Of a stretch of 29,701 nucleotides of DNA, positions 4,176 through 11,049 are shown one piece after another. The translations under genes and the position numbers were made by a program. Each line of letters begins with the position of its first letter. Positions within the stretch are counted from its first letter, which is position 1. Under the pieces are notes generated by a model, which saw only the letters and a list, made by a program, of their open reading frames with translations, did no database searches and had not been told where the DNA came from. This stretch comes from a virus. Where the stretch lies: the UHGV virus genome UHGV-0181887; one strand, given 5' to 3'.

Positions 4176-6770
4176 ATGACTGATTTTGCATGGCCCTGGA
4201 ACGCGCCGCGCGCCGCTGTTGGCCCCTACGTCTACATTCCTAAAAAAATCGCCCCGCTTGCCGGGGCGGTGGCGCATCACCCAGCCGTTAAAAAACACAT
4301 CGATCACCTTTTCAAAGAAGCTGGTTATAACCCAGAAGAAGTCCGCGACCGCAACGCGTTAATCCAGGCGCTGGACAGATGCGAGCCGCGCGGGCTGCCA
4401 TTAGCCAGACATCAGGAATTTATCCGCCAGCAAAATGAAGCCGTCAAAGCGGCGGCGGCTGCCTGGGCAGATACGCCGGAAGGAGTGGAAGCGCGCCTCT
4501 TGTCTGAGCCGTATTACATTCGCGAAGTGTGGCGTAAAAAAATTGACTGGCTGCGGACTAACCGCGAAGCACGACACATTAATGATTTTCTTATGGGCAC
4601 CGTGAAAAAATCCTTAATGCGTCTTGATGTTGTTCGACGCCAGCAAGGCACAGAAACTTATGTCCGCAGTGAGTTGGCAGCGTACTGGCAGGAGGACTGG
4701 CAACGCCTTGCTGGTTTTACTAAGCGCGAGGTGTTAAGCGCAGCATATGAAATAGCTAATCGTCTGGAGGAAATGTTTAGCACGGAGTGTGAGGCGCAAA
4801 AGCTGACCGTTGAGTCTATGACAAACGATGAGCTTGATTGGCTTTACTGGCACCTGGGCCGTGAAATGCTGGCCTTGCGTGTTGTGCCGCCAGCCTGGGG
4901 CAAGCCGTGGGAGCGCGATCGTATCTTTACCGCCATTCTTCGGATGTCTTCGCCGGACTGGTGGGGGCGTAAAATCTGGCGTTTGCGCTGTGACTGGCGT
5001 GAAAATCAACTTCGTGCAGTTGGCGCAGTAAACAAAAAAGCACACGCCTATGTAAGCGCCAGTAGCCTGATTGAGTGGGAGGAACAGCGCCGGAAAAATC
5101 GCAACTTCATGAAAAATCATGAATTGGTCGATCAGGATGGTAACGTTTCTTCGCTGGAAGACATGATTAATAAATCCACGTCTAATCCGGCTATTCGTCG
5201 CCATGAGCTTATGGCTCGCATGGCTGGTGTGGAGCTTGTCGCCCAGAGTCGCGGCGATGTCGGCATCTTCCTGACTATTACGAGTCCGTCGAAATATCAC
5301 AGCAATATCCAATCCGGGCATCATAACGGTAAATGGAATCACACCACGGTTGCAGAGGCGCAGCAGTATTTATGCCGTGTCTGGAATCGTGCTACCGCCA
5401 AGCTGAAACGCGAAGATTTGCGCCCTTATGGCTTTCGTGTTGCGGAGCCGCATCACGATGGCACTCCGCACTGGCACGCCCTGATATTCATGCCGAAAGC
5501 TGAAGTTAAAGCGACTATCGCCATTCTTCGCGAGTACTTCATTAAGGAAGACCGCGCCGAGTTGGGCCGCAATACCGGTGCGCGTTTTAAATCCAAGAAA
5601 ATGGACCCGCGTAAGGGATCGGCAACGGCATACATTGCTAAATACATTTCAAAGAATATCGACGGACACGCCCTGGCGGGTGAACTGGATGACGAAAGCG
5701 GCAAGCCGCTTAATGAAACTGCTAAATACGCAATGGCGTGGGCGTCACTCCATCGCATACGGCAATTTCAGCCGCTGGGCCAGCCACCTGTGTCTGTTTA
5801 TCGCGAGTTACGCAAACTGAGCAACCAGATCACCGCGCGCCGGAAGATAGCCAACACCTTTAAGCGCGGCGCACCACAGATTGACGATCCTGCAATGGAT
5901 GCCGTTTGTGCCGCTGCGGATGTTGGATGCTTCGCAACCTACATCATCCGCCAGGGCGGTGTGTTGGTACCGCGTGATCGCTACGTGGTGCGCCTGGCAT
6001 ATCAGCCAGCCGAGGAAATGAATGCCTATTGTGAAACGCCCGATAAAGTTTTTGGCGTTTGGTCACCCCGGCTGGGTGACGTATCCCGCATTTGTACGCG
6101 TCTTGTTAAATGGACTATTCGCGCCAAATCATCAGCTAATACCGAGGCCGAACGCGGCCCCGGTTTGGGGGTTGACGTTTGCCCGTCGCCCTTGGGCGAC
6201 GCTTGGAGTTCTGTCAATAACTCTACGGAAGACGAAAAAATCACCGATTTTCAGCCTGACGATGAGGCAGAGACAGAAAATTCAGACGATGAAATCTTTG
6301 ATTTTGACAACATGACCGATAGGCAACGTCGCAAATTGTGGAAGCGGCTCCGGGAAATGCCGCCGCCGTGCCGAAATGTTGCCCCGCCATATCCTCCAGG
6401 TAGTGATTTAGATATTGCCTGGCGGGCTGCCGCCGAAAAATTAGAGTCAAGACGCCTGGCTGAAGATGCCCAGCGCGTAGGTATGGGCCCGGCGATAGCC
6501 CGTCTGGAGTCAGAAGCTGCGTTGCATGGTCTGGAGCTTGGCGAGGCGTTGGCGGTATCGCTGTTGAAGGGTGGAAGCCTGACTGTTGGGGCAAAAGTTT
6601 ATCGCGCAAAAGTTAGCGGCGAGCTAATCACGCGTCAGCAATTCGATGAGTCAGTGAAAGTGAATAGGTTGTGGGAACGGCTGAGGGATAACCACGGTGT
6701 GAACATCACCGAGCTGAGATTTGACCCGGTTGGGGAGTATCAAAAAATGCTCAAGTTAGTCACCGGGTAA
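4176..6770 (+). CDS. A: Rolling-circle replication initiator endonuclease (P2 gpA-like)
   Basis: 864-aa ORF; HUH-type motif PHWHALIF and paired-tyrosine motif YIAKYISK characteristic of the P2 A / phiX174 A family; position after the early genes. Confidence 0.85.
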   Translation: MTDFAWPWNAPRAAVGPYVYIPKKIAPLAGAVAHHPAVKKHIDHLFKEAGYNPEEVRDRNALIQALDRCEPRGLPLARHQEFIRQQNEAVKAAAAAWADTPEGVEARLLSEPYYIREVWRKKIDWLRTNREARHINDFLMGTVKKSLMRLDVVRRQQGTETYVRSELAAYWQEDWQRLAGFTKREVLSAAYEIANRLEEMFSTECEAQKLTVESMTNDELDWLYWHLGREMLALRVVPPAWGKPWERDRIFTAILRMSSPDWWGRKIWRLRCDWRENQLRAVGAVNKKAHAYVSASSLIEWEEQRRKNRNFMKNHELVDQDGNVSSLEDMINKSTSNPAIRRHELMARMAGVELVAQSRGDVGIFLTITSPSKYHSNIQSGHHNGKWNHTTVAEAQQYLCRVWNRATAKLKREDLRPYGFRVAEPHHDGTPHWHALIFMPKAEVKATIAILREYFIKEDRAELGRNTGARFKSKKMDPRKGSATAYIAKYISKNIDGHALAGELDDESGKPLNETAKYAMAWASLHRIRQFQPLGQPPVSVYRELRKLSNQITARRKIANTFKRGAPQIDDPAMDAVCAAADVGCFATYIIRQGGVLVPRDRYVVRLAYQPAEEMNAYCETPDKVFGVWSPRLGDVSRICTRLVKWTIRAKSSANTEAERGPGLGVDVCPSPLGDAWSSVNNSTEDEKITDFQPDDEAETENSDDEIFDFDNMTDRQRRKLWKRLREMPPPCRNVAPPYPPGSDLDIAWRAAAEKLESRRLAEDAQRVGMGPAIARLESEAALHGLELGEALAVSLLKGGSLTVGAKVYRAKVSGELITRQQFDESVKVNRLWERLRDNHGVNITELRFDPVGEYQKMLKLVTG

Positions 6771-6882
6771 AAATATCAACCGCGCGGGCCGTCGCAACTT
6801 GTTGTGATGGTTCGCGTGGTTCTGCGGGTGCGGGCGGCAAAGAGTCCGCAAGGTTTGTTTTTAAAAGCGAGAGGTTAAGAAA

Positions 6883-7098
6883 GTGAAAGCAAGTTATATC
6901 AGTTACTTTGAAGGCTGCAATGCGGCAGGTCATGTTGTTTTTGCTGGTAATGGATCAGCCACGGTTGAGTATGATGATGGTGATTGCGTTGATCCGGGTG
7001 GGTTTCTTGATTCTCATAAGGCCGCGCTTTTGAAGGCGGCCCAGGCGAAAAATCCTGGTGTTGTGTTCGTTTATATTAAGAATATTGTAAGGCTCTAG
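6883..7098 (+). CDS. Small hypothetical protein (71 aa) in accessory island 1
   Basis: GTG start with GAGGT 7 nt upstream; followed immediately by a hairpin terminator; occupies the P2 orf91/tin/old region. Confidence 0.45.
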   Translation: MKASYISYFEGCNAAGHVVFAGNGSATVEYDDGDCVDPGGFLDSHKAALLKAAQAKNPGVVFVYIKNIVRL

Positions 7099-7106
7099 AC
7101 TGCTGC

Positions 7107-7136
7107 AAAGGCCGCCTTGTTGGGCGGCTTTTCTGC
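7107..7136. terminator. Bidirectional intrinsic terminator between convergent genes
   Basis: GCCGCC-TTGTTG-GGCGGC hairpin (7111-7128) followed by TTTTCTGC on the plus strand; A-rich flank gives a weaker T-tail on the minus strand. Confidence 0.6.
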
Positions 7137-7144
7137 AATGGAGG

Positions 7145-7648
7145 TTACTTGTTTTTTTTGAGTGGGTTCTTTTTCCATCGCTTAACTAGCCACTCGAATT
7201 CTTGATAGGTGGTCTCTGAGTTAATGTGCTCTCTGATGGCTTTAATCAGCGGTTCGGCAATATCAAACGTTTCAATTACAGTGCTGTAAGATGTGCGTTT
7301 GATCATCTCTTCGTTATAGATGCCCTCACGAATGCTGACCGCTACTCTTTCGTAAAAATTCAGAATGTACTGAAATTTTCGACGCTCAACCATTTCATCT
7401 TCAGTGATAGCACCGCCATTGCATGGGAAAACATAAGCGCGAAAAGATTTTCCTGAACGATGTACCTGTTTTAAAACGTGGAGCGATTCTAGGTATTGCG
7501 CGTCCTGGCGGCTCTCAAATAAAAAGTTTGCAGTCTGCGTTTTCTTTGCCGTTCGAACGTTGTAGATAATCGTTACGATAGCGGCAACAACACCGAGAAA
7601 AACAACGGCGCTGCTAATGATGGAAAGTGTGTTTGCGTCGAGAGTCAT
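7145..7648 (-). CDS. Membrane-anchored protein of unknown function (N-terminal TM helix, about 135-aa cytoplasmic domain); candidate exclusion/defence gene
   Basis: 167 aa from ATG 7648; hydrophobic segment LSIISSAVVFLGVVAAIVTIIY; visibly AT-richer than flanking phage genes; lies in the P2 tin/old variable locus next to cos. Confidence 0.6.
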   Translation of the reverse strand: MTLDANTLSIISSAVVFLGVVAAIVTIIYNVRTAKKTQTANFLFESRQDAQYLESLHVLKQVHRSGKSFRAYVFPCNGGAITEDEMVERRKFQYILNFYERVAVSIREGIYNEEMIKRTSYSTVIETFDIAEPLIKAIREHINSETTYQEFEWLVKRWKKNPLKKNK

Positions 7649-7660
7649 CAAATTTTATCC

Positions 7661-7688
7661 ATAAAAAAGGCGGGGTAAAATCCCCGCC
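7661..7688 (-). terminator. Intrinsic terminator immediately upstream of the membrane-protein gene (attenuator-like)
   Basis: Minus-strand reading GGCGGGG-AUUUUA-CCCCGCC followed by UUUUUU; sits between the 11-codon leader ORF and the 7648 start codon. Confidence 0.6.
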
Positions 7689-7706
7689 TCGTAGAGGTCA
7701 TGCGGC

Positions 7707-7742
7707 TTAGAAGCCGTCAAATTCATCAAACATATTTTTCAT
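7707..7742 (-). CDS. Putative 11-aa leader peptide MKNMFDEFDGF
   Basis: ATG at 7742 preceded by AGGAGG with a 6-nt spacer (minus strand), stop TAA at 7709-7707, then the terminator 18 nt downstream; coding status unproven. Confidence 0.35.
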   Translation of the reverse strand: MKNMFDEFDGF

Positions 7743-7794
7743 AACCAACCTCCTCAGATTCTGCTGTAACCACGCGCAGTGGTTGTATGTGACA

Positions 7795-7823
7795 AAATTA
7801 CCCCAAACGTAATAGGTAGTCAA
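7795..7823 (-). promoter_or_regulatory. Candidate sigma70 promoter for the leader/membrane-protein unit
   Basis: Minus-strand TTGACT (7823-7818), 17-bp spacer, TAATTT (7800-7795), a weak -10; a 14/16 near-palindrome TGCGCAAATTTGCACA at 7855-7870 lies upstream. Confidence 0.25.
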
Positions 7824-7967
7824 ATAAACGGTCACTTTTTTACCCGCACAATAGTGCGCAAATTTGCACAATAAAATCATTACCGATTTTTGGCGGTAAC
7901 GCCTGTAGTGGTGCTGGTTGGGCGTAGATCTGCAAGTGCACGAAAACACGCGTGATCGTTGCGCGCA

Positions 7968-7986
7968 GGTGACGGGGGGAAAGCCC
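7968..7986. other. Putative cos cohesive-end site
   Basis: GGTGACGGGGGGAAAGCCC resembles the P2/186 19-nt cohesive end as recalled from memory; located between island 1 and portal gene Q as expected for a P2 prophage. Confidence 0.4.
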
Positions 7987-8171
7987 GCGCGGCAGGGTAG
8001 GTAGGGGGATGCCTCAAACATAGGAAAATTGGCGCAATTCTGGCGCGCTGCTGCGTTCTGTGTGTTGTGTGCGGGTAGTGGCGTGTTTAGATGATGAGGT
8101 GCTTAGAATGGCGCTGGCGCGCCGTGTGTTGATGTGATGCGGAGAGCGCCGCCGGGGTGGCGGCGGTGTGG

Positions 8172-9233
8172 TTATTTGATTGATTCAAGCAGGGCGTAAG
8201 GTCTAAAGCGGATCACTTCTTCGCCAAGCCAGTCGTTGACGTGCTTCAGTGCTTCCATTGCTGGCATCAGTTCGTTGATGGCAAACACGCGCGCGGCTTT
8301 CTCCACATCACCGAATGAGCCGTTGCCGTCCGGCATGGCCCCCATCAGTTGCGGTGGTACTCGGTGAGCGGCAAGGATGTCATCACGCGTAGCTGATTTG
8401 ATATTTAAAAACTCATCCTTTGCAGATATCTGGCTGAAGGGCATCAGTTGTACCCCGTCTTTGCCGCCGCCTGGTGCGTGGATCACTACGTTCTTAAATG
8501 CGCCTTTGTTCCTGGCTCCTGCCAGCGTTTGCTGTATCTGTTTTACACCGGCGTCATCTACCTGTGATGTGCCGATGTAAAGAATGCAGCCAGCATGAGA
8601 TCCGTTCTCATAGTACATTTTGCGGAACATATCCGCCGAGTGTGACAGGCTGGCTGACAACAGGGCGCCCATATATTCCGGCATTCCGTAGATTTCCTGA
8701 TGAATATCGGGGTTCAGCACGTGGCAAACTGTGCCGGTTTCAAAGGCGCATTCGTCTTTCCACTGTCTGATAAACCAGTACGTGTCCAGGTCGGTGCCAC
8801 GCCGGGTGTACTTAGCAGGGCAATGGCGAAGCGGTAGCCGCCCGCCTAGCCGGTTCTTTCGTTCTTCAAGGTAGAAGTTGCCAAACACAAACCAGTCAAG
8901 TGCCAGGGCGGAGAACGTCTGGCGAGACAGTAGCGGGTGTGGAATAAAGCATCCCGCCAGCGCGTTGCGCTTGAAGTACAGCGCTGACTGGTGCCAGGAC
9001 GCTTTGCCGAATGAGCGCGCAAGCCCGTACCAGTCCACCGGCGTTTCGTAGTATCTGCCGTTATCGGCGCAATACATATTGTCGAGCAGGTCGTAAGCGT
9101 CAGTGACCTGGTATGGCCCGTCAAAGGTGAAGGCGCTCAGAGCGGGATCGCGCTTCAGCGCTTCGCCAATATCAGCCTGTTGCGCGCCGTCAGTAAGCAT
9201 GGTCATACCGCTTTCATGTGTTGTTGTGTTCAT
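8172..9233 (-). CDS. Q: Portal protein (P2 gpQ-like)
   Basis: 353-aa ORF downstream of and overlapping the terminase gene on the minus strand; size and position match P2 Q. Confidence 0.85.
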   Translation of the reverse strand: MNTTTHESGMTMLTDGAQQADIGEALKRDPALSAFTFDGPYQVTDAYDLLDNMYCADNGRYYETPVDWYGLARSFGKASWHQSALYFKRNALAGCFIPHPLLSRQTFSALALDWFVFGNFYLEERKNRLGGRLPLRHCPAKYTRRGTDLDTYWFIRQWKDECAFETGTVCHVLNPDIHQEIYGMPEYMGALLSASLSHSADMFRKMYYENGSHAGCILYIGTSQVDDAGVKQIQQTLAGARNKGAFKNVVIHAPGGGKDGVQLMPFSQISAKDEFLNIKSATRDDILAAHRVPPQLMGAMPDGNGSFGDVEKAARVFAINELMPAMEALKHVNDWLGEEVIRFRPYALLESIK

Positions 9234-10957
9234 TAAAACTCCATAACGAAACTACCGCCGCCGCCGTTCTCGCGTCCAAGCGGCTCGTTGATGACTGCCA
9301 GCATATTGGCCCAGGCTAAGTCGCCGTGACTGACTCCGCGCGCGCGGTCGGTGTCATAAGTGACTTGTCCGCCGGGGGTGGTGATCTTTCTGACAGCGTT
9401 GAATGCTGACACTAGCGCCTGTTCACTGCGGTCATACTCCCAGCGCCCCGCGCGGATCACCTGTTGCATTTTCAGTACCAGGGTGCGCTTTGATGACAGC
9501 GACATGATGAAACAGACCGCAGCCGGGAAGAACTTTTTGACCAGTTGCCAGACCGCTTCACCGATGCCGGTGCCGTCAATTGCGATGTGTCGAACGTTAT
9601 ATTTCATCGTCAGGTCTTCGATCACTTTGGCCTGTTCTTCAAACTCCATCCCGCGTAGCTGGCGCGTTTCTATCGTGCGGAACTTGCCACCACTGACCAG
9701 GGGAGGGGCAACCACGGAAACAGCGCCGCTGTCACCGTTGCCGCTGCCGCCGTTGGCGTCGTAGCCTATCCAGACTTCACGTTCACCCAGCGGGCGCGGT
9801 GCGTAGGGTTTCCAGTCCTGCCAGTCGTCGTAGCCGTCCGCGCCACACGTCAGTAGCTGATTGAGTGAGAAAACAGCCTCGCCTTCTCTGACGAACTCAC
9901 ACATGTACAGGTTGGTGTATTCGTCCGGGGTATTTTCGTCCTGGATTTCTTCCAGGTCGGTGAACTCCCAGCCGTGGTCGATCACGTCCTTCAGGGTGAC
10001 AATCTGCCGCCAGGTTTTGTCCGGGCATAACAGGCCGCTGTTTAGCGTTTTCCAGCTTGTGTCGAAGTCTACCCGGCTGGACTTGGCCCGCTTCTCATTC
10101 CAGCGCTTGCCAGTCCAGAAGGGGTAGGCTTCGTGGCTTTCGCTCGATGGCGTTGAAAAGTAAGTGCGCGTAAGCCCTTTCAGGGTTGCCATAGCGCCAG
10201 CCACTTTGCGAAGGTTGGCAAAGTTGCCTACCCAGAAAAATTCATCAAAAAACAGGTTGCCGGTGTAACTCTGCGCGGTAGCGGCAGACGTGCCGAGAAA
10301 ATGCAATTCAGCCCCGTTAGACAGCAAAATTTTGTCACCGCCCTTTAGTTCTACGTCTACCTCTTCGGCAATCTTCTGAATGAATCCCCTGAACTGGTGC
10401 GCCTGGCGGCGTGAAGCGGACAGAAAAATCTGGTTGCGTTGGTATCCGTGCTTAACGTCATCCCGCAGCGCCTGTAATAGCGCTTCGCGGGCAAAATACC
10501 AGGTTGCGCCAATCTGGCGACTTTTCAGGATCATGCGGTTTCGTTGCTGGCGCTGTTCAAACCATCCCTGCTGATGCCAGGCCAGAGAGTCCTGAATTTT
10601 TTCCCGCAGCGCGGCGATCTGCGCTTCGGTGAAGTGGTTTTTCTTCTTGCCCGCGCGCGCTTTCTTGAAGGGTTGCGCCGGTTGGCCTTCTGCCAGCTTC
10701 TTCACCTGGCGCGTGAGCGCGTCGATTTCCTTCAGATCGCCGCCGGTCTTTGTTGGTTTCATCGCGATTTGGCATAACCGGGCATCAATAGATTGTGTGA
10801 CGCGCTGAATCGCGGGCGTTTCGTCCCATTCGTCGCGCTTTTTCCACGAATAAACCGTGTTCTGACTGATACCCATCAGGCGTGCGATCTCTGCTGGCGG
10901 GTAGCCCTGCCAGTAAAGCTGCTTTGCTCTCTGTCTTACAAATGCGTCCTGGATCAT
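9233..10957 (-). CDS. P: Terminase large (ATPase) subunit (P2 gpP-like)
   Basis: Start placed at ATG 10957 with GAGAGGA 6 nt upstream (the track ORF extends to a TTG at 11041); Walker-A-like KSRQIGAT; divergent from O. Confidence 0.85.
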   Translation of the reverse strand: MIQDAFVRQRAKQLYWQGYPPAEIARLMGISQNTVYSWKKRDEWDETPAIQRVTQSIDARLCQIAMKPTKTGGDLKEIDALTRQVKKLAEGQPAQPFKKARAGKKKNHFTEAQIAALREKIQDSLAWHQQGWFEQRQQRNRMILKSRQIGATWYFAREALLQALRDDVKHGYQRNQIFLSASRRQAHQFRGFIQKIAEEVDVELKGGDKILLSNGAELHFLGTSAATAQSYTGNLFFDEFFWVGNFANLRKVAGAMATLKGLTRTYFSTPSSESHEAYPFWTGKRWNEKRAKSSRVDFDTSWKTLNSGLLCPDKTWRQIVTLKDVIDHGWEFTDLEEIQDENTPDEYTNLYMCEFVREGEAVFSLNQLLTCGADGYDDWQDWKPYAPRPLGEREVWIGYDANGGSGNGDSGAVSVVAPPLVSGGKFRTIETRQLRGMEFEEQAKVIEDLTMKYNVRHIAIDGTGIGEAVWQLVKKFFPAAVCFIMSLSSKRTLVLKMQQVIRAGRWEYDRSEQALVSAFNAVRKITTPGGQVTYDTDRARGVSHGDLAWANMLAVINEPLGRENGGGGSFVMEF

Positions 10958-11020
10958 GCGGTGTCCTCTCGTTTCGATGGAGAGATTAACCCGCGCGCGT
11001 GGGCTGTTCCCGCTGTTTGG

Positions 11021-11049
11021 GTTGTGGGCCGTCTCTGACAACTAAAACG
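11021..11049. promoter_or_regulatory. Late-promoter activator site (Ogr box TGT-N12-ACA) in the divergent P/O region
   Basis: TGT 11023-11025, 12-nt spacer, ACA 11038-11040; extended element GTTGTG-N5-TCTCTGACAACTAAAACG shared with 28195-28223. Confidence 0.6.

Follow-up and report, generated by a model that had tools for sequence, protein, structure and literature searches.

Loci of the ToxIN type combine a single promoter, a short antidote element, a terminator that sets the antidote:toxin ratio and an effector gene (PMC3401426), and the mccA operon relies on a seven-codon open reading frame (ORF), a strong Shine–Dalgarno (SD) sequence and a terminator to yield an abundant short transcript, rare read-through and an excess of peptide (PMC4231749). 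We describe here a module with a similar order of parts in UHGV-0181887, a virus genome of 29,701 nucleotides (hereafter the window, meaning the whole of this stretch), in which an 11-codon micro-ORF and an intrinsic terminator precede the gene for a predicted membrane-anchored protein of the DUF4760 family. DUF4760 is listed by Rousset et al. (2022; Table S5B) as system #3 of the Escherichia coli P2 hotspot, accounting for 1,102 of 18,150 loci, with a protein of four transmembrane (TM) segments as its partner in that listing; the micro-ORF is not included in that catalogue, from which arrangements consisting only of proteins of <120 residues were discarded (PMC9122126). On comparative sequence evidence, the micro-ORF looks like a conserved, unannotated coding partner of DUF4760, and its product may act in trans on the protein encoded downstream.

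The module occupies the minus strand, and every element listed in the original prediction, an annotation made from the sequence alone, was found where that prediction had placed it. An SD sequence AGGAGG (7754–7749), read from the sequence, stands 6 nt ahead of the ATG at 7742, the 'textbook' start first described; the micro-ORF that follows (7742–7707, assigned by comparative conservation) encodes MKNMFDEFDGF and ends in TAA, and the terminator (7690–7663) begins 18 nt further on. In nearly every locus inspected, the micro-ORF has a strong SD sequence (GGAGG, GGGGG or AAGGAG) ahead of it. For comparison, 24 genome loci, 70 viral contigs and annotated phages were gathered and searched for a small ORF not more than 400 nt upstream of the DUF4760 gene with the ending [DE][DE][FYW][DE]-x-x-stop, a pattern that fixes residue classes at four positions. 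Such an ORF is present in 91 of 98 related loci, in which the ending reads [DE]E[FY][DE][GW][FVLC]-stop; of the remaining seven, five are incomplete or do not extend upstream, in L011 the motif is followed by four extra codons, and the last is L049. Examples include MKKMYDEFDGF (E. coli P88-like), MKKVFDEFDGF (Citrobacter), MEAMFDEYDWF (Rahnella), MRKFDEYEGV and MSIHDEYEGF. The six motif codons occur in 28 distinct DNA versions, in which the first and second positions are almost invariant and every third position varies (for example GAT/GAC, GAA/GAG, TTT/TTC and GGT/GGC), and all three stop codons are in use. Because the variation sits at third codon positions, selection appears to act on the amino-acid sequence and not on the RNA. 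Since the search pattern itself preset four residue classes, we place the weight of the argument on this codon periodicity and on recurrence. The same layout is seen in about 90 loci, and its recurrence, together with the leader fold described below, is beyond chance.

Related endings were also found upstream of DUF4760 in 16–18 of 19 distant loci, in which the DUF4760 proteins are only 25–40% identical. Phages of the Pseudomonas type and P. syringae have ...REEYEGI, ...NEEYEGF, ...REEYEGL and ...KEEYEGI, and loci of the Halomonas type have ...DENDGY; the micro-ORF of Alteromonas phage P24 encodes MNLRDGWDDI, those of Massilia and Pasteurella MKFSEGWDG and ...NEGWDGND, and those of metagenomic phage-like loci MSYLFNEGWDG and KTMREGWDG. 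Further endings are MLHDTWDD, ...EGWELR and ...EGWEFR, two others (KDGSYI and TDGYGLG) are doubtful, and one of the 19 loci (L115) has no micro-ORF motif upstream. Under a stricter rule (an SD-preceded ORF of 6–30 codons with [FYW][DE][GD] within its last six residues), 11 of the 19 distant loci were positive compared with none of 19 reverse-complement windows and none of 783 random windows. An aromatic residue lies 3–5 positions before the stop across the family (DEFDGF*, EGWDG*, EGWDGND*, DGWDDI*); the register of the motif to the stop is fixed within Enterobacterales (DE[FY][DE]GΦ-stop) and shifted by one or two residues elsewhere. The loci are related within clades, and their counts overstate the number of independent events; the recurrence between clades (enterobacterial, Pseudomonas-type, Halomonas-type and EGWDG-type) is the strongest evidence. 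Pfam and NCBIfam hold no family for six micro-ORF peptides of 20–22 residues, and the GenBank phage and PGAP records that were inspected carry no annotation of the micro-ORF, PGAP giving only the DUF4760 coding sequence. The motif is also kept in loci that have no terminator (L021, L023, L026, L100, L114, L117, L118 and L121), in some of which the micro-ORF stop abuts or overlaps the DUF4760 start. As the motif survives there, the 'leader' is better regarded as a micro-protein gene than as just a ribosome-positioning device.

The DUF4760 protein (7648–7145, minus strand; 167 residues) matches Pfam PF15956 over profile positions 2–141 of 141 (E = 7.3e-34; 117.4 bits against a 25-bit cut-off) and phrog_2284 (E = 2.8e-67). 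Its soluble domain had been described as carrying no recognizable motif, a statement that does not hold given this full-length family assignment. A protein from Kluyvera ascorbata is 100% identical to it, and a P88-type copy is present at ≥95% identity in 289 of 5,426 complete E. coli genomes. Searching 1.8 billion representatives with a profile yielded 2,700 clusters at 50% identity (E ≤ 1e-3) spanning proteobacterial phages and chromosomes; nearly all of the best 150 of these clusters are 140–230 residues long, with a few short fragments and a few longer proteins, and the longer homologues include no natural fusion of the peptide to DUF4760. Residues Asn97 and Glu100 of an LNFYE motif, Thr146 and Trp158 are invariant throughout the family, and Arg47, Arg70, Arg101 and Arg139 are also conserved. 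The AlphaFold2 model, calculated from a 34-sequence alignment, is all-helical (helices 5–48, 50–65, 83–107, 113–142 and 149–160), with a predicted local distance difference test score of 91.2 and a predicted TM-score of 0.78. A hydrophobic stretch (residues 8–30), the predicted single N-terminal TM helix, lies inside the confidently modelled first helix and is directly followed by a Lys/Arg cluster, from which an N-out/C-in topology with a cytoplasmic helical domain is predicted.

The check proposed with the original prediction, a family and structure search of this protein, returned a Pfam family of unknown function on the one hand and no PADLOC or PDB-sequence match on the other. No NCBIfam model matches the protein, and no PDB sequence does so even with the 34-sequence profile. 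A Foldseek search of the PDB with the model gave weak matches only, of which the best, the EP domain of plant EDS1/PAD4 (probability 0.84–0.97, TM-score 0.51–0.56, E ≃ 0.4–1), is a lead suggested by the model and not a finding; a fold search of BFVD was uninformative. In the literature searched, DUF4760 is named by a single paper, in passing, PF15956 and two E. coli accessions do not occur, and the single text match to DEFDGF belongs to unrelated work on RNA secondary structure. The description of the protein as uncharacterized is consistent with these results. Residues 149–154 of DUF4760 (QEFEWL; ∼7187–7204), part of a conserved QE[FY]EW helix, resemble the peptide core DE[FY][DE]. The idea that the peptide is a copy of this helix was not convincing, as Phe and Tyr co-vary partly in Enterobacterales and not in distant clades; the likeness may be a coincidence or a hint of self-mimicry.

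The intrinsic terminator (7690–7663, minus strand), identified by scanning and folding, has the core GGCGGGG-ATTTTA-CCCCGCC-T6, which the scan extends to a stem of 9 bp (7690–7667), with arms GAGGCGGGG (7690–7682) and CCCCGCCUU (7675–7667), an AUUUUA loop and a U6 run at 7668–7663. Its calculated stability is −17.9 kcal/mol with a mean pair probability of 0.97. Of 54 unique variants, 48 have a hairpin and T-run separating the micro-ORF from DUF4760. The stem sequence GGCGGGG is retained throughout the close clade, except in Citrobacter (GGCGGAG/CTCCGCC), and the stems of different clades are unrelated (ACGGGGCC, GCGGAGC, GGTGAGTCT, GGAGGCC, GGAGACC, GGCGCC and AAGGCATC); what is maintained is the position of the terminator and not its sequence. 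The distance from the stop codon to the first stem pair is 16–19 nt in 41 of the 48 variants despite unrelated spacers and stems. When the stop codon occupies the A site, a terminating ribosome shields about 10 nt downstream, and since the stem starts 16–19 nt on, a ribosome at the micro-ORF stop cannot melt it. In Boltzmann ensembles of the full leaders, the mean pair probability of the terminator is at least 0.92 in 42 of 48 cases, lower values arising where the parser added a small extra helix. The RNAalifold consensus of 20 leaders contains only the terminator and a 5 bp hairpin at the stop codon, and neither this consensus nor the ensembles of the 48 leaders include a competing antiterminator.

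Six variants lack a terminator by our rule: it is missing altogether from L021, L023 and L026, the hairpin of L022 and L024 is not followed by four or more T residues, and L020 has a long structured spacer. Among the distant loci it is absent from L100, L114, L117, L118 and L121. Because such loci keep the peptide motif, the terminator is unlikely to be the reason for the small ORF and appears to be a frequent add-on that limits transcription of DUF4760. The three loci with no terminator at all lie in Enterobacteriaceae chromosomes and have the micro-ORF, and L023 and L026 have the same conserved upstream gene end; this suggests a domesticated or ancestral form with a different expression logic.

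Immediately after the U-run of the window lies a mini-ORF, ATGGATAAAATTTGA (ATG GAT AAA ATT TGA; MDKI; 7662–7648, minus strand), the TGA of which overlaps the DUF4760 ATG at 7648 (TGATG), and no good SD sequence stands ahead of the DUF4760 ORF; both the missing SD and the overlapping mini-ORF had been noted at first and are visible in the sequence. An ATG occurs 0–2 nt past the U-run in most terminator-bearing variants (TTTTTTATGG, TTTTTCATGG, TTTTCAATGG), those of the Pseudomonas-phage clade among them. Relative to DUF4760 it may be in frame, open a short overlapping ORF or open a long ORF in another frame, and the peptide of the mini-ORF is thus not conserved. This ATG could be a re-initiation site or could base-pair with the CUCUA box.

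ToxIN, CptIN and TenpIN resemble the module in the order of antidote element, terminator and effector, and the terminator is present here in the corresponding place; those loci are carried on mobile elements and act on phage infection. The antidote of type III toxin–antitoxin systems is a tandem-repeat RNA, whereas the upstream element of the module appears to be selected as a peptide, and Tandem Repeats Finder reported no tandem repeats with a score of at least 30 in 7600–8170. Likewise, the type III toxin is an endoribonuclease of the ToxN family, whereas the downstream protein is predicted to be all-helical and membrane-anchored and its only Pfam match is DUF4760, with none to ToxN, CptN or TenpN. 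Membership in the type III class was rejected given the absence of tandem repeats and of a ToxN fold, and the likeness is functional and architectural only. The mccA–mccB pair shares with the module a short SD-led ORF, an intrinsic terminator and a downstream gene. It differs in that MccA is the substrate of an adenylating enzyme, whereas the downstream protein of the module has no enzyme signature, and in that the mccA terminator is masked unless a ribosome binds, whereas the terminator of the module is predicted to fold unaided.

Our preferred interpretation, to which we assign a probability of about 40%, is a micropeptide paired with a membrane-anchored DUF4760 protein, with the peptide acting in trans as antidote or ligand. 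A constitutive promoter (∼7823–7795) would produce a short RNA comprising a 5′ stem-loop, a strong SD sequence, the micro-ORF and a strong terminator. Most transcripts would end at the terminator, so that MKNMFDEFDGF is made in excess, and a minority would read through into a DUF4760 message that is poorly translated for want of an SD sequence and because of the overlapping mini-ORF. The acidic-aromatic ending of the peptide would bind the cytoplasmic helical domain in trans, where conserved Arg and aromatic residues of the DUF4760 model could hold it, and keep the protein inactive in the manner of an antidote. A peptide so small would presumably be short-lived. Were an infecting phage to shut down host transcription or translation, or were the prophage lost, DUF4760 would then be released to act at the inner membrane, with exclusion, abortive infection or post-segregational killing as the outcome. 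Several parts of this scheme are inferred, namely the trans action, its direction (inhibitor as opposed to activator or substrate), the toxicity of DUF4760 and its anti-phage role, and a defence or exclusion function is suggested by the location of the module alone. The trans role is favoured because the motif is retained whatever the downstream arrangement, because its register to the stop shifts by one or two residues across the family and because the stop/start-coupled versions look like ordinary partner genes. A varying register would fit a linear binding motif better than an arrest sequence registered to the peptidyl-transferase centre, and an abutting or overlapping stop and start would be the usual arrangement of interacting partners. 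By analogy, a positionally conserved terminator with no antiterminator resembles the upstream-in-excess layout of toxI–toxN and mccA–mccB.

A number of observations weigh against this interpretation. We know of no protein antitoxin of 9–11 residues, and a free formyl-peptide of that length may be degraded too fast to be useful. In clades with an abutting or overlapping stop and start, synthesis would be ∼1:1 and not in excess of the peptide, and for this reason the terminator logic is not universal. The 16–19 nt spacing between stop and hairpin, together with the ATG after the U-run, hints at a mechanism in cis, and a nascent peptide acting in cis would likewise yield conservation at the amino-acid level. 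PADLOC-DB v2 contains no family that matches the DUF4760 protein at E ≤ 1. We also found no record of system #3 having been assayed; its name and sequence are missing from the other supplementary text files of that study, among which the table of tested systems was not pinpointed (PMC9122126).

Several other explanations of the conserved leader were weighed. The micro-ORF could be a sensor in cis, the C-terminal residues of the nascent peptide halting the ribosome from within the tunnel at the stop codon or close to it, possibly upon sensing a metabolite or translation stress during infection, and thereby shifting RNA folding, re-initiation or Rho access so as to switch DUF4760. TnaC is an arrest peptide that blocks termination. 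In the micro-ORF peptides the last 5–7 residues before the stop are conserved and the N-terminus varies, as in PepNL (PMC11890864); the micro-ORF invariably lies on the same strand directly ahead of DUF4760, an ATG follows the U-run in most variants, and such a sensor better accounts for the narrow spacing to the terminator hairpin and for the weak hairpin that often holds the stop codon in its loop (see below). We nevertheless consider it unlikely: across the family the aromatic residue does not keep one distance from the stop and Gly or Asp is followed by 0–2 residues, any of the three stop codons is accepted, a ribosome that has arrived at the stop cannot reach the hairpin, folding predicts no alternative structure, and the downstream layout (terminator, none, or stop–start overlap) varies such that no single read-out in cis fits all loci. 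Classical ribosome-position attenuation, in which a ribosome on the leader chooses between terminator and antiterminator and so allows conditional read-through into a toxic gene, had been the mechanism originally proposed. The module shares with trpL-type leaders, TnaC and PepNL a short ORF with a strong SD sequence, conservation next to the stop and a strong terminator before the gene; a helix pairing the SD sequence adjoins the terminator in the close clade, and ribosome binding does govern such a terminator in mccA (PMC4231749). It departs from these leaders in having no run of a regulatory codon, no preferred stop codon and a register to the stop that shifts across the family. The defining feature of attenuation, an antiterminator that excludes the terminator, is missing, the hairpin lies outside the ribosome footprint, and retention of the peptide in terminator-less loci is unexpected for a pure positioning device. 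Attenuation by the leader peptide is thereby rendered very improbable; the low expression first suggested for the module is supported, in that the conserved terminator should keep DUF4760 expression low.

The product of the micro-ORF might alternatively be a substrate or cargo that DUF4760 modifies, presents or exports, in the manner of a ribosomally synthesized and post-translationally modified peptide (RiPP) or a signal, with the terminator providing excess substrate. The operon logic of mccA (micro-ORF, terminator, an abundant short transcript to be expected and rare read-through; PMC4231749) is of this kind, the Asp/Glu, aromatic and Gly residues of the peptide are conserved, and the invariant polar residues Asn97 and Glu100 could, speculatively, be catalytic. 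This too seems improbable, as DUF4760 is a helical bundle of 150–170 residues that matches no modifying-enzyme family or fold, no transporter, biosynthetic or other extra gene is consistently linked to it in the loci compared, the peptide has no leader/core organization, and the stop/start-coupled versions have no device for making excess substrate. Finally, the small ORF could be incidental, the hairpin ending a P–Q late-operon or cos-region transcript and DUF4760 having a promoter of its own. Genes P and Q, cos and the module all lie on the minus strand, and a promoter-like TTTACC-16-TAAAAT detected by scanning (7679–7652) overlaps the hairpin; this site is not conserved in relatives and was rejected as an internal promoter. 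An incidental ORF is disfavoured because the micro-ORF and hairpin accompany DUF4760 in non-P2 phages and at chromosomal sites as well, and the motif is absent from control windows; the comparative sequence data bring this explanation close to refutation.

The leader has further features. A candidate σ70 promoter read from the sequence (7823–7795, minus strand) has a −35 element TTGACT (7823–7818), a 17 nt spacer and a −10 element TAATTT (7800–7795); the consensus scan left it out, the −10 element matching at just three of six positions. TTGACT-N17-TA(A/G)TTT occurs in 27 of 66 unique upstream variants, mostly in the clade with at least 76% protein identity and including the non-P2 chromosomal locus L010. 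A dyad covers the spacer and the −10 element (ATTAC-N6-GTAAT in the window and ATTACC-N4-GGTAAT in relatives); its retention even in L010 suggests an operator, and it resembles the MqsA box, ACCT-N3-AGGT. At the predicted transcript start, minimum free energy (MFE) and centroid folds agree on a stem-loop AACCAC-UGCGC-GUGGUU (7784–7768, minus strand). Most relatives have a hairpin of different sequence at this position; 55 of 66 variants have a folding energy of −6 kcal/mol or below, but only 20 stand out from shuffles, so that support for this element is moderate. The whole leader of the window has an MFE of −43.3 kcal/mol (z = −2.8), better than all 200 shuffles.

Both folds also pair a box GACCUCU in the spacer (7699–7693, minus strand) with the SD region GGAGGUU (7752–7746), giving a long-range helix of 7 bp that encloses the micro-ORF. 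The enterobacterial clade retains the block (T)AACCTCT, with duplex energies of −9 to −12 kcal/mol; the pairing is absent from distant clades and reaches p ≤ 0.05 against shuffles in 8 of 42 variants. As a core mechanism this helix was rejected, being real in the close (enterobacterial P2-type) clade and not general. The loop of a hairpin at 7716–7701 (CGGCUUCUAAGCCG) contains the micro-ORF stop codon UAA. Pairing of this hairpin reaches 88.9% in the close clade, three of its five pairs show compensatory changes there, and a synonymous change of GGC to GGT is met by GCC to ATC past the stop. Similar hairpins occur in phage D14E and in L102, L062 and L070; family-wide they are weak, many variants being no better than shuffles. 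Taken together, the two named leader helices surpass slid-partner controls in the close clade. A search of 6700–8300 against Rfam gave sub-threshold noise only, with nothing near any gathering score.

The module is situated between the genes for the replication protein gpA (4176–6770; Phage_GPA, E = 1.6e-105) and the portal protein gpQ (8172–9233, minus strand), both assigned with Pfam. The adjoining large ORF (9233–11041, minus strand) is presumably the P2 terminase gene P, judged by position only; gpA alone is not on the minus strand, which carries gpQ, this ORF and the module. A cos-like core GGTGACGGGGGGAAAGCCC was read from the plus strand at 7968–7986 and agrees with P2 cos at 15 of 19 positions. 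The site is the cos-proximal gpA–gpQ hotspot of a P2-like prophage, and the DUF4760 module lies, as hotspot cargo does, between gene A and portal gene Q and next to cos. About 35 homologous loci have the same gpA and portal flanks. The G+C content is 0.41–0.45 over 6850–7900 compared with 0.52–0.61 on each side, which bears out the first impression of an AT-rich gene region. The placing of the unit where P2 has old and tin is also borne out: the flanking families identify a real, self-contained accessory unit in this hotspot (PMC9122126). It resembles old/tin in its cos-proximal position and AT-richness and is unrelated in sequence to Tin and to Old, an ATPase/TOPRIM nuclease. Its orientation relative to gpA also corresponds to that of old/tin on the P2 map.

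Directly after gpA, an ORF of 71 residues with a GTG start (orf71; 6883–7098, plus strand) converges on the DUF4760 gene. The Kluyvera locus L004 has this ORF with 87% conservation; searches of Pfam, PHROGs and NCBIfam assigned it to no family, and it matches no PADLOC family at E ≤ 1. Between the two convergent ends lies a hairpin GCCGCC-N6-GGCGGC (7111–7128), read from the sequence and not reported by the scan, which is followed on the plus strand by TTTTCTGC and probably terminates both genes. On the far side of the module, the minus strand at 7873–7843 (TATTGTGCAAATTTGCGCACTATTGTGC) has two direct copies of TATTGTGC, 20 nt apart, on either side of a palindrome. This repeat block sits between the cos core and the module promoter, is kept in the P2-like loci L001, L003 and L004 and may be a packaging (terminase-binding) or operator site. 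In L001 (2092–2934) and in P88-like loci of E. coli (L044–L052), DUF4760 is followed on the same strand by a 280-residue protein with four TM segments and, beyond it, a ParM/StbA partition pair. Both are absent from the window, and the micro-ORF and DUF4760 are thus the conserved core.

In other genomes the module occupies varied sites. It lies directly downstream of cI in Pseudomonas phage D14E, adjoins the integrase gene in Alteromonas phage P24 and, in Acinetobacter phage A3926.3, adjoins a BRO-family gene a few genes from an annotated tail protein. Other prophages have it beside putative tail-fibre and BRO/antirepressor ORFs (read from N-termini without a family search), and it also occurs near Arc/helix–turn–helix repressor genes or Mu-like transposase genes. 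Lone insertions are found between aspS and glyA (L117; Pfam families) and between putative nrdAB and glpT/glpA (L021; read from ORFs). Such sites are typical of lysogen-expressed exclusion genes and of toxin–antitoxin mini-islands, a circumstantial point. λ RexB, P22 SieB and T4 Imm and Sp are small inner-membrane proteins of exclusion or abortive infection. DUF4760 resembles them as a small, predicted membrane protein at lysogeny or accessory positions (after cI, by int, at prophage ends); no homology to any of them was detected, and we know of no conserved micropeptide partner for them.

If the peptide is indeed a trans-acting antidote or ligand, a wider proposal can be made, although only tentatively: the loci may represent a new class of phage-borne immunity or addiction module, in which a cytoplasmic peptide of 8–24 residues ending in acidic-(E/G)-aromatic-(D/E)-(G/D) serves as the labile antidote or decoy ligand of a membrane-anchored effector, their ratio being set by a terminator in phage-borne copies and by translational coupling in others. 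The antidote peptide would then be the smallest proteinaceous antitoxin known. The C-terminal tail of the E. coli single-stranded DNA-binding protein (SSB) reads ...DFDDDIPF, and in a bolder variant, based on analogy, the peptide would mimic such acidic, aromatic-ended tails, so that an invading phage protein that binds or resembles them displaces the peptide and fires the effector.

In the P2 hotspot of E. coli, DUF4760 ranks third among cargo genes by frequency (1,102/18,150 loci), and it has no known function. What is new is its almost constant association with an unannotated micro-ORF of conserved sequence, which turns an orphan gene into a testable two-component system. The pairing may explain how single-gene cloning or catalogues based on annotation would miss an activity, and it presents a case in which annotation systematically omits a partner of 9–24 codons that, on the antidote-or-ligand interpretation, would be functionally decisive. 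If the peptide is a nascent-chain sensor, it would provide a novel arrest motif associated with an accessory gene of phages; if it is an antidote, the module would represent a new flavour of toxin–antitoxin or abortive-infection logic.

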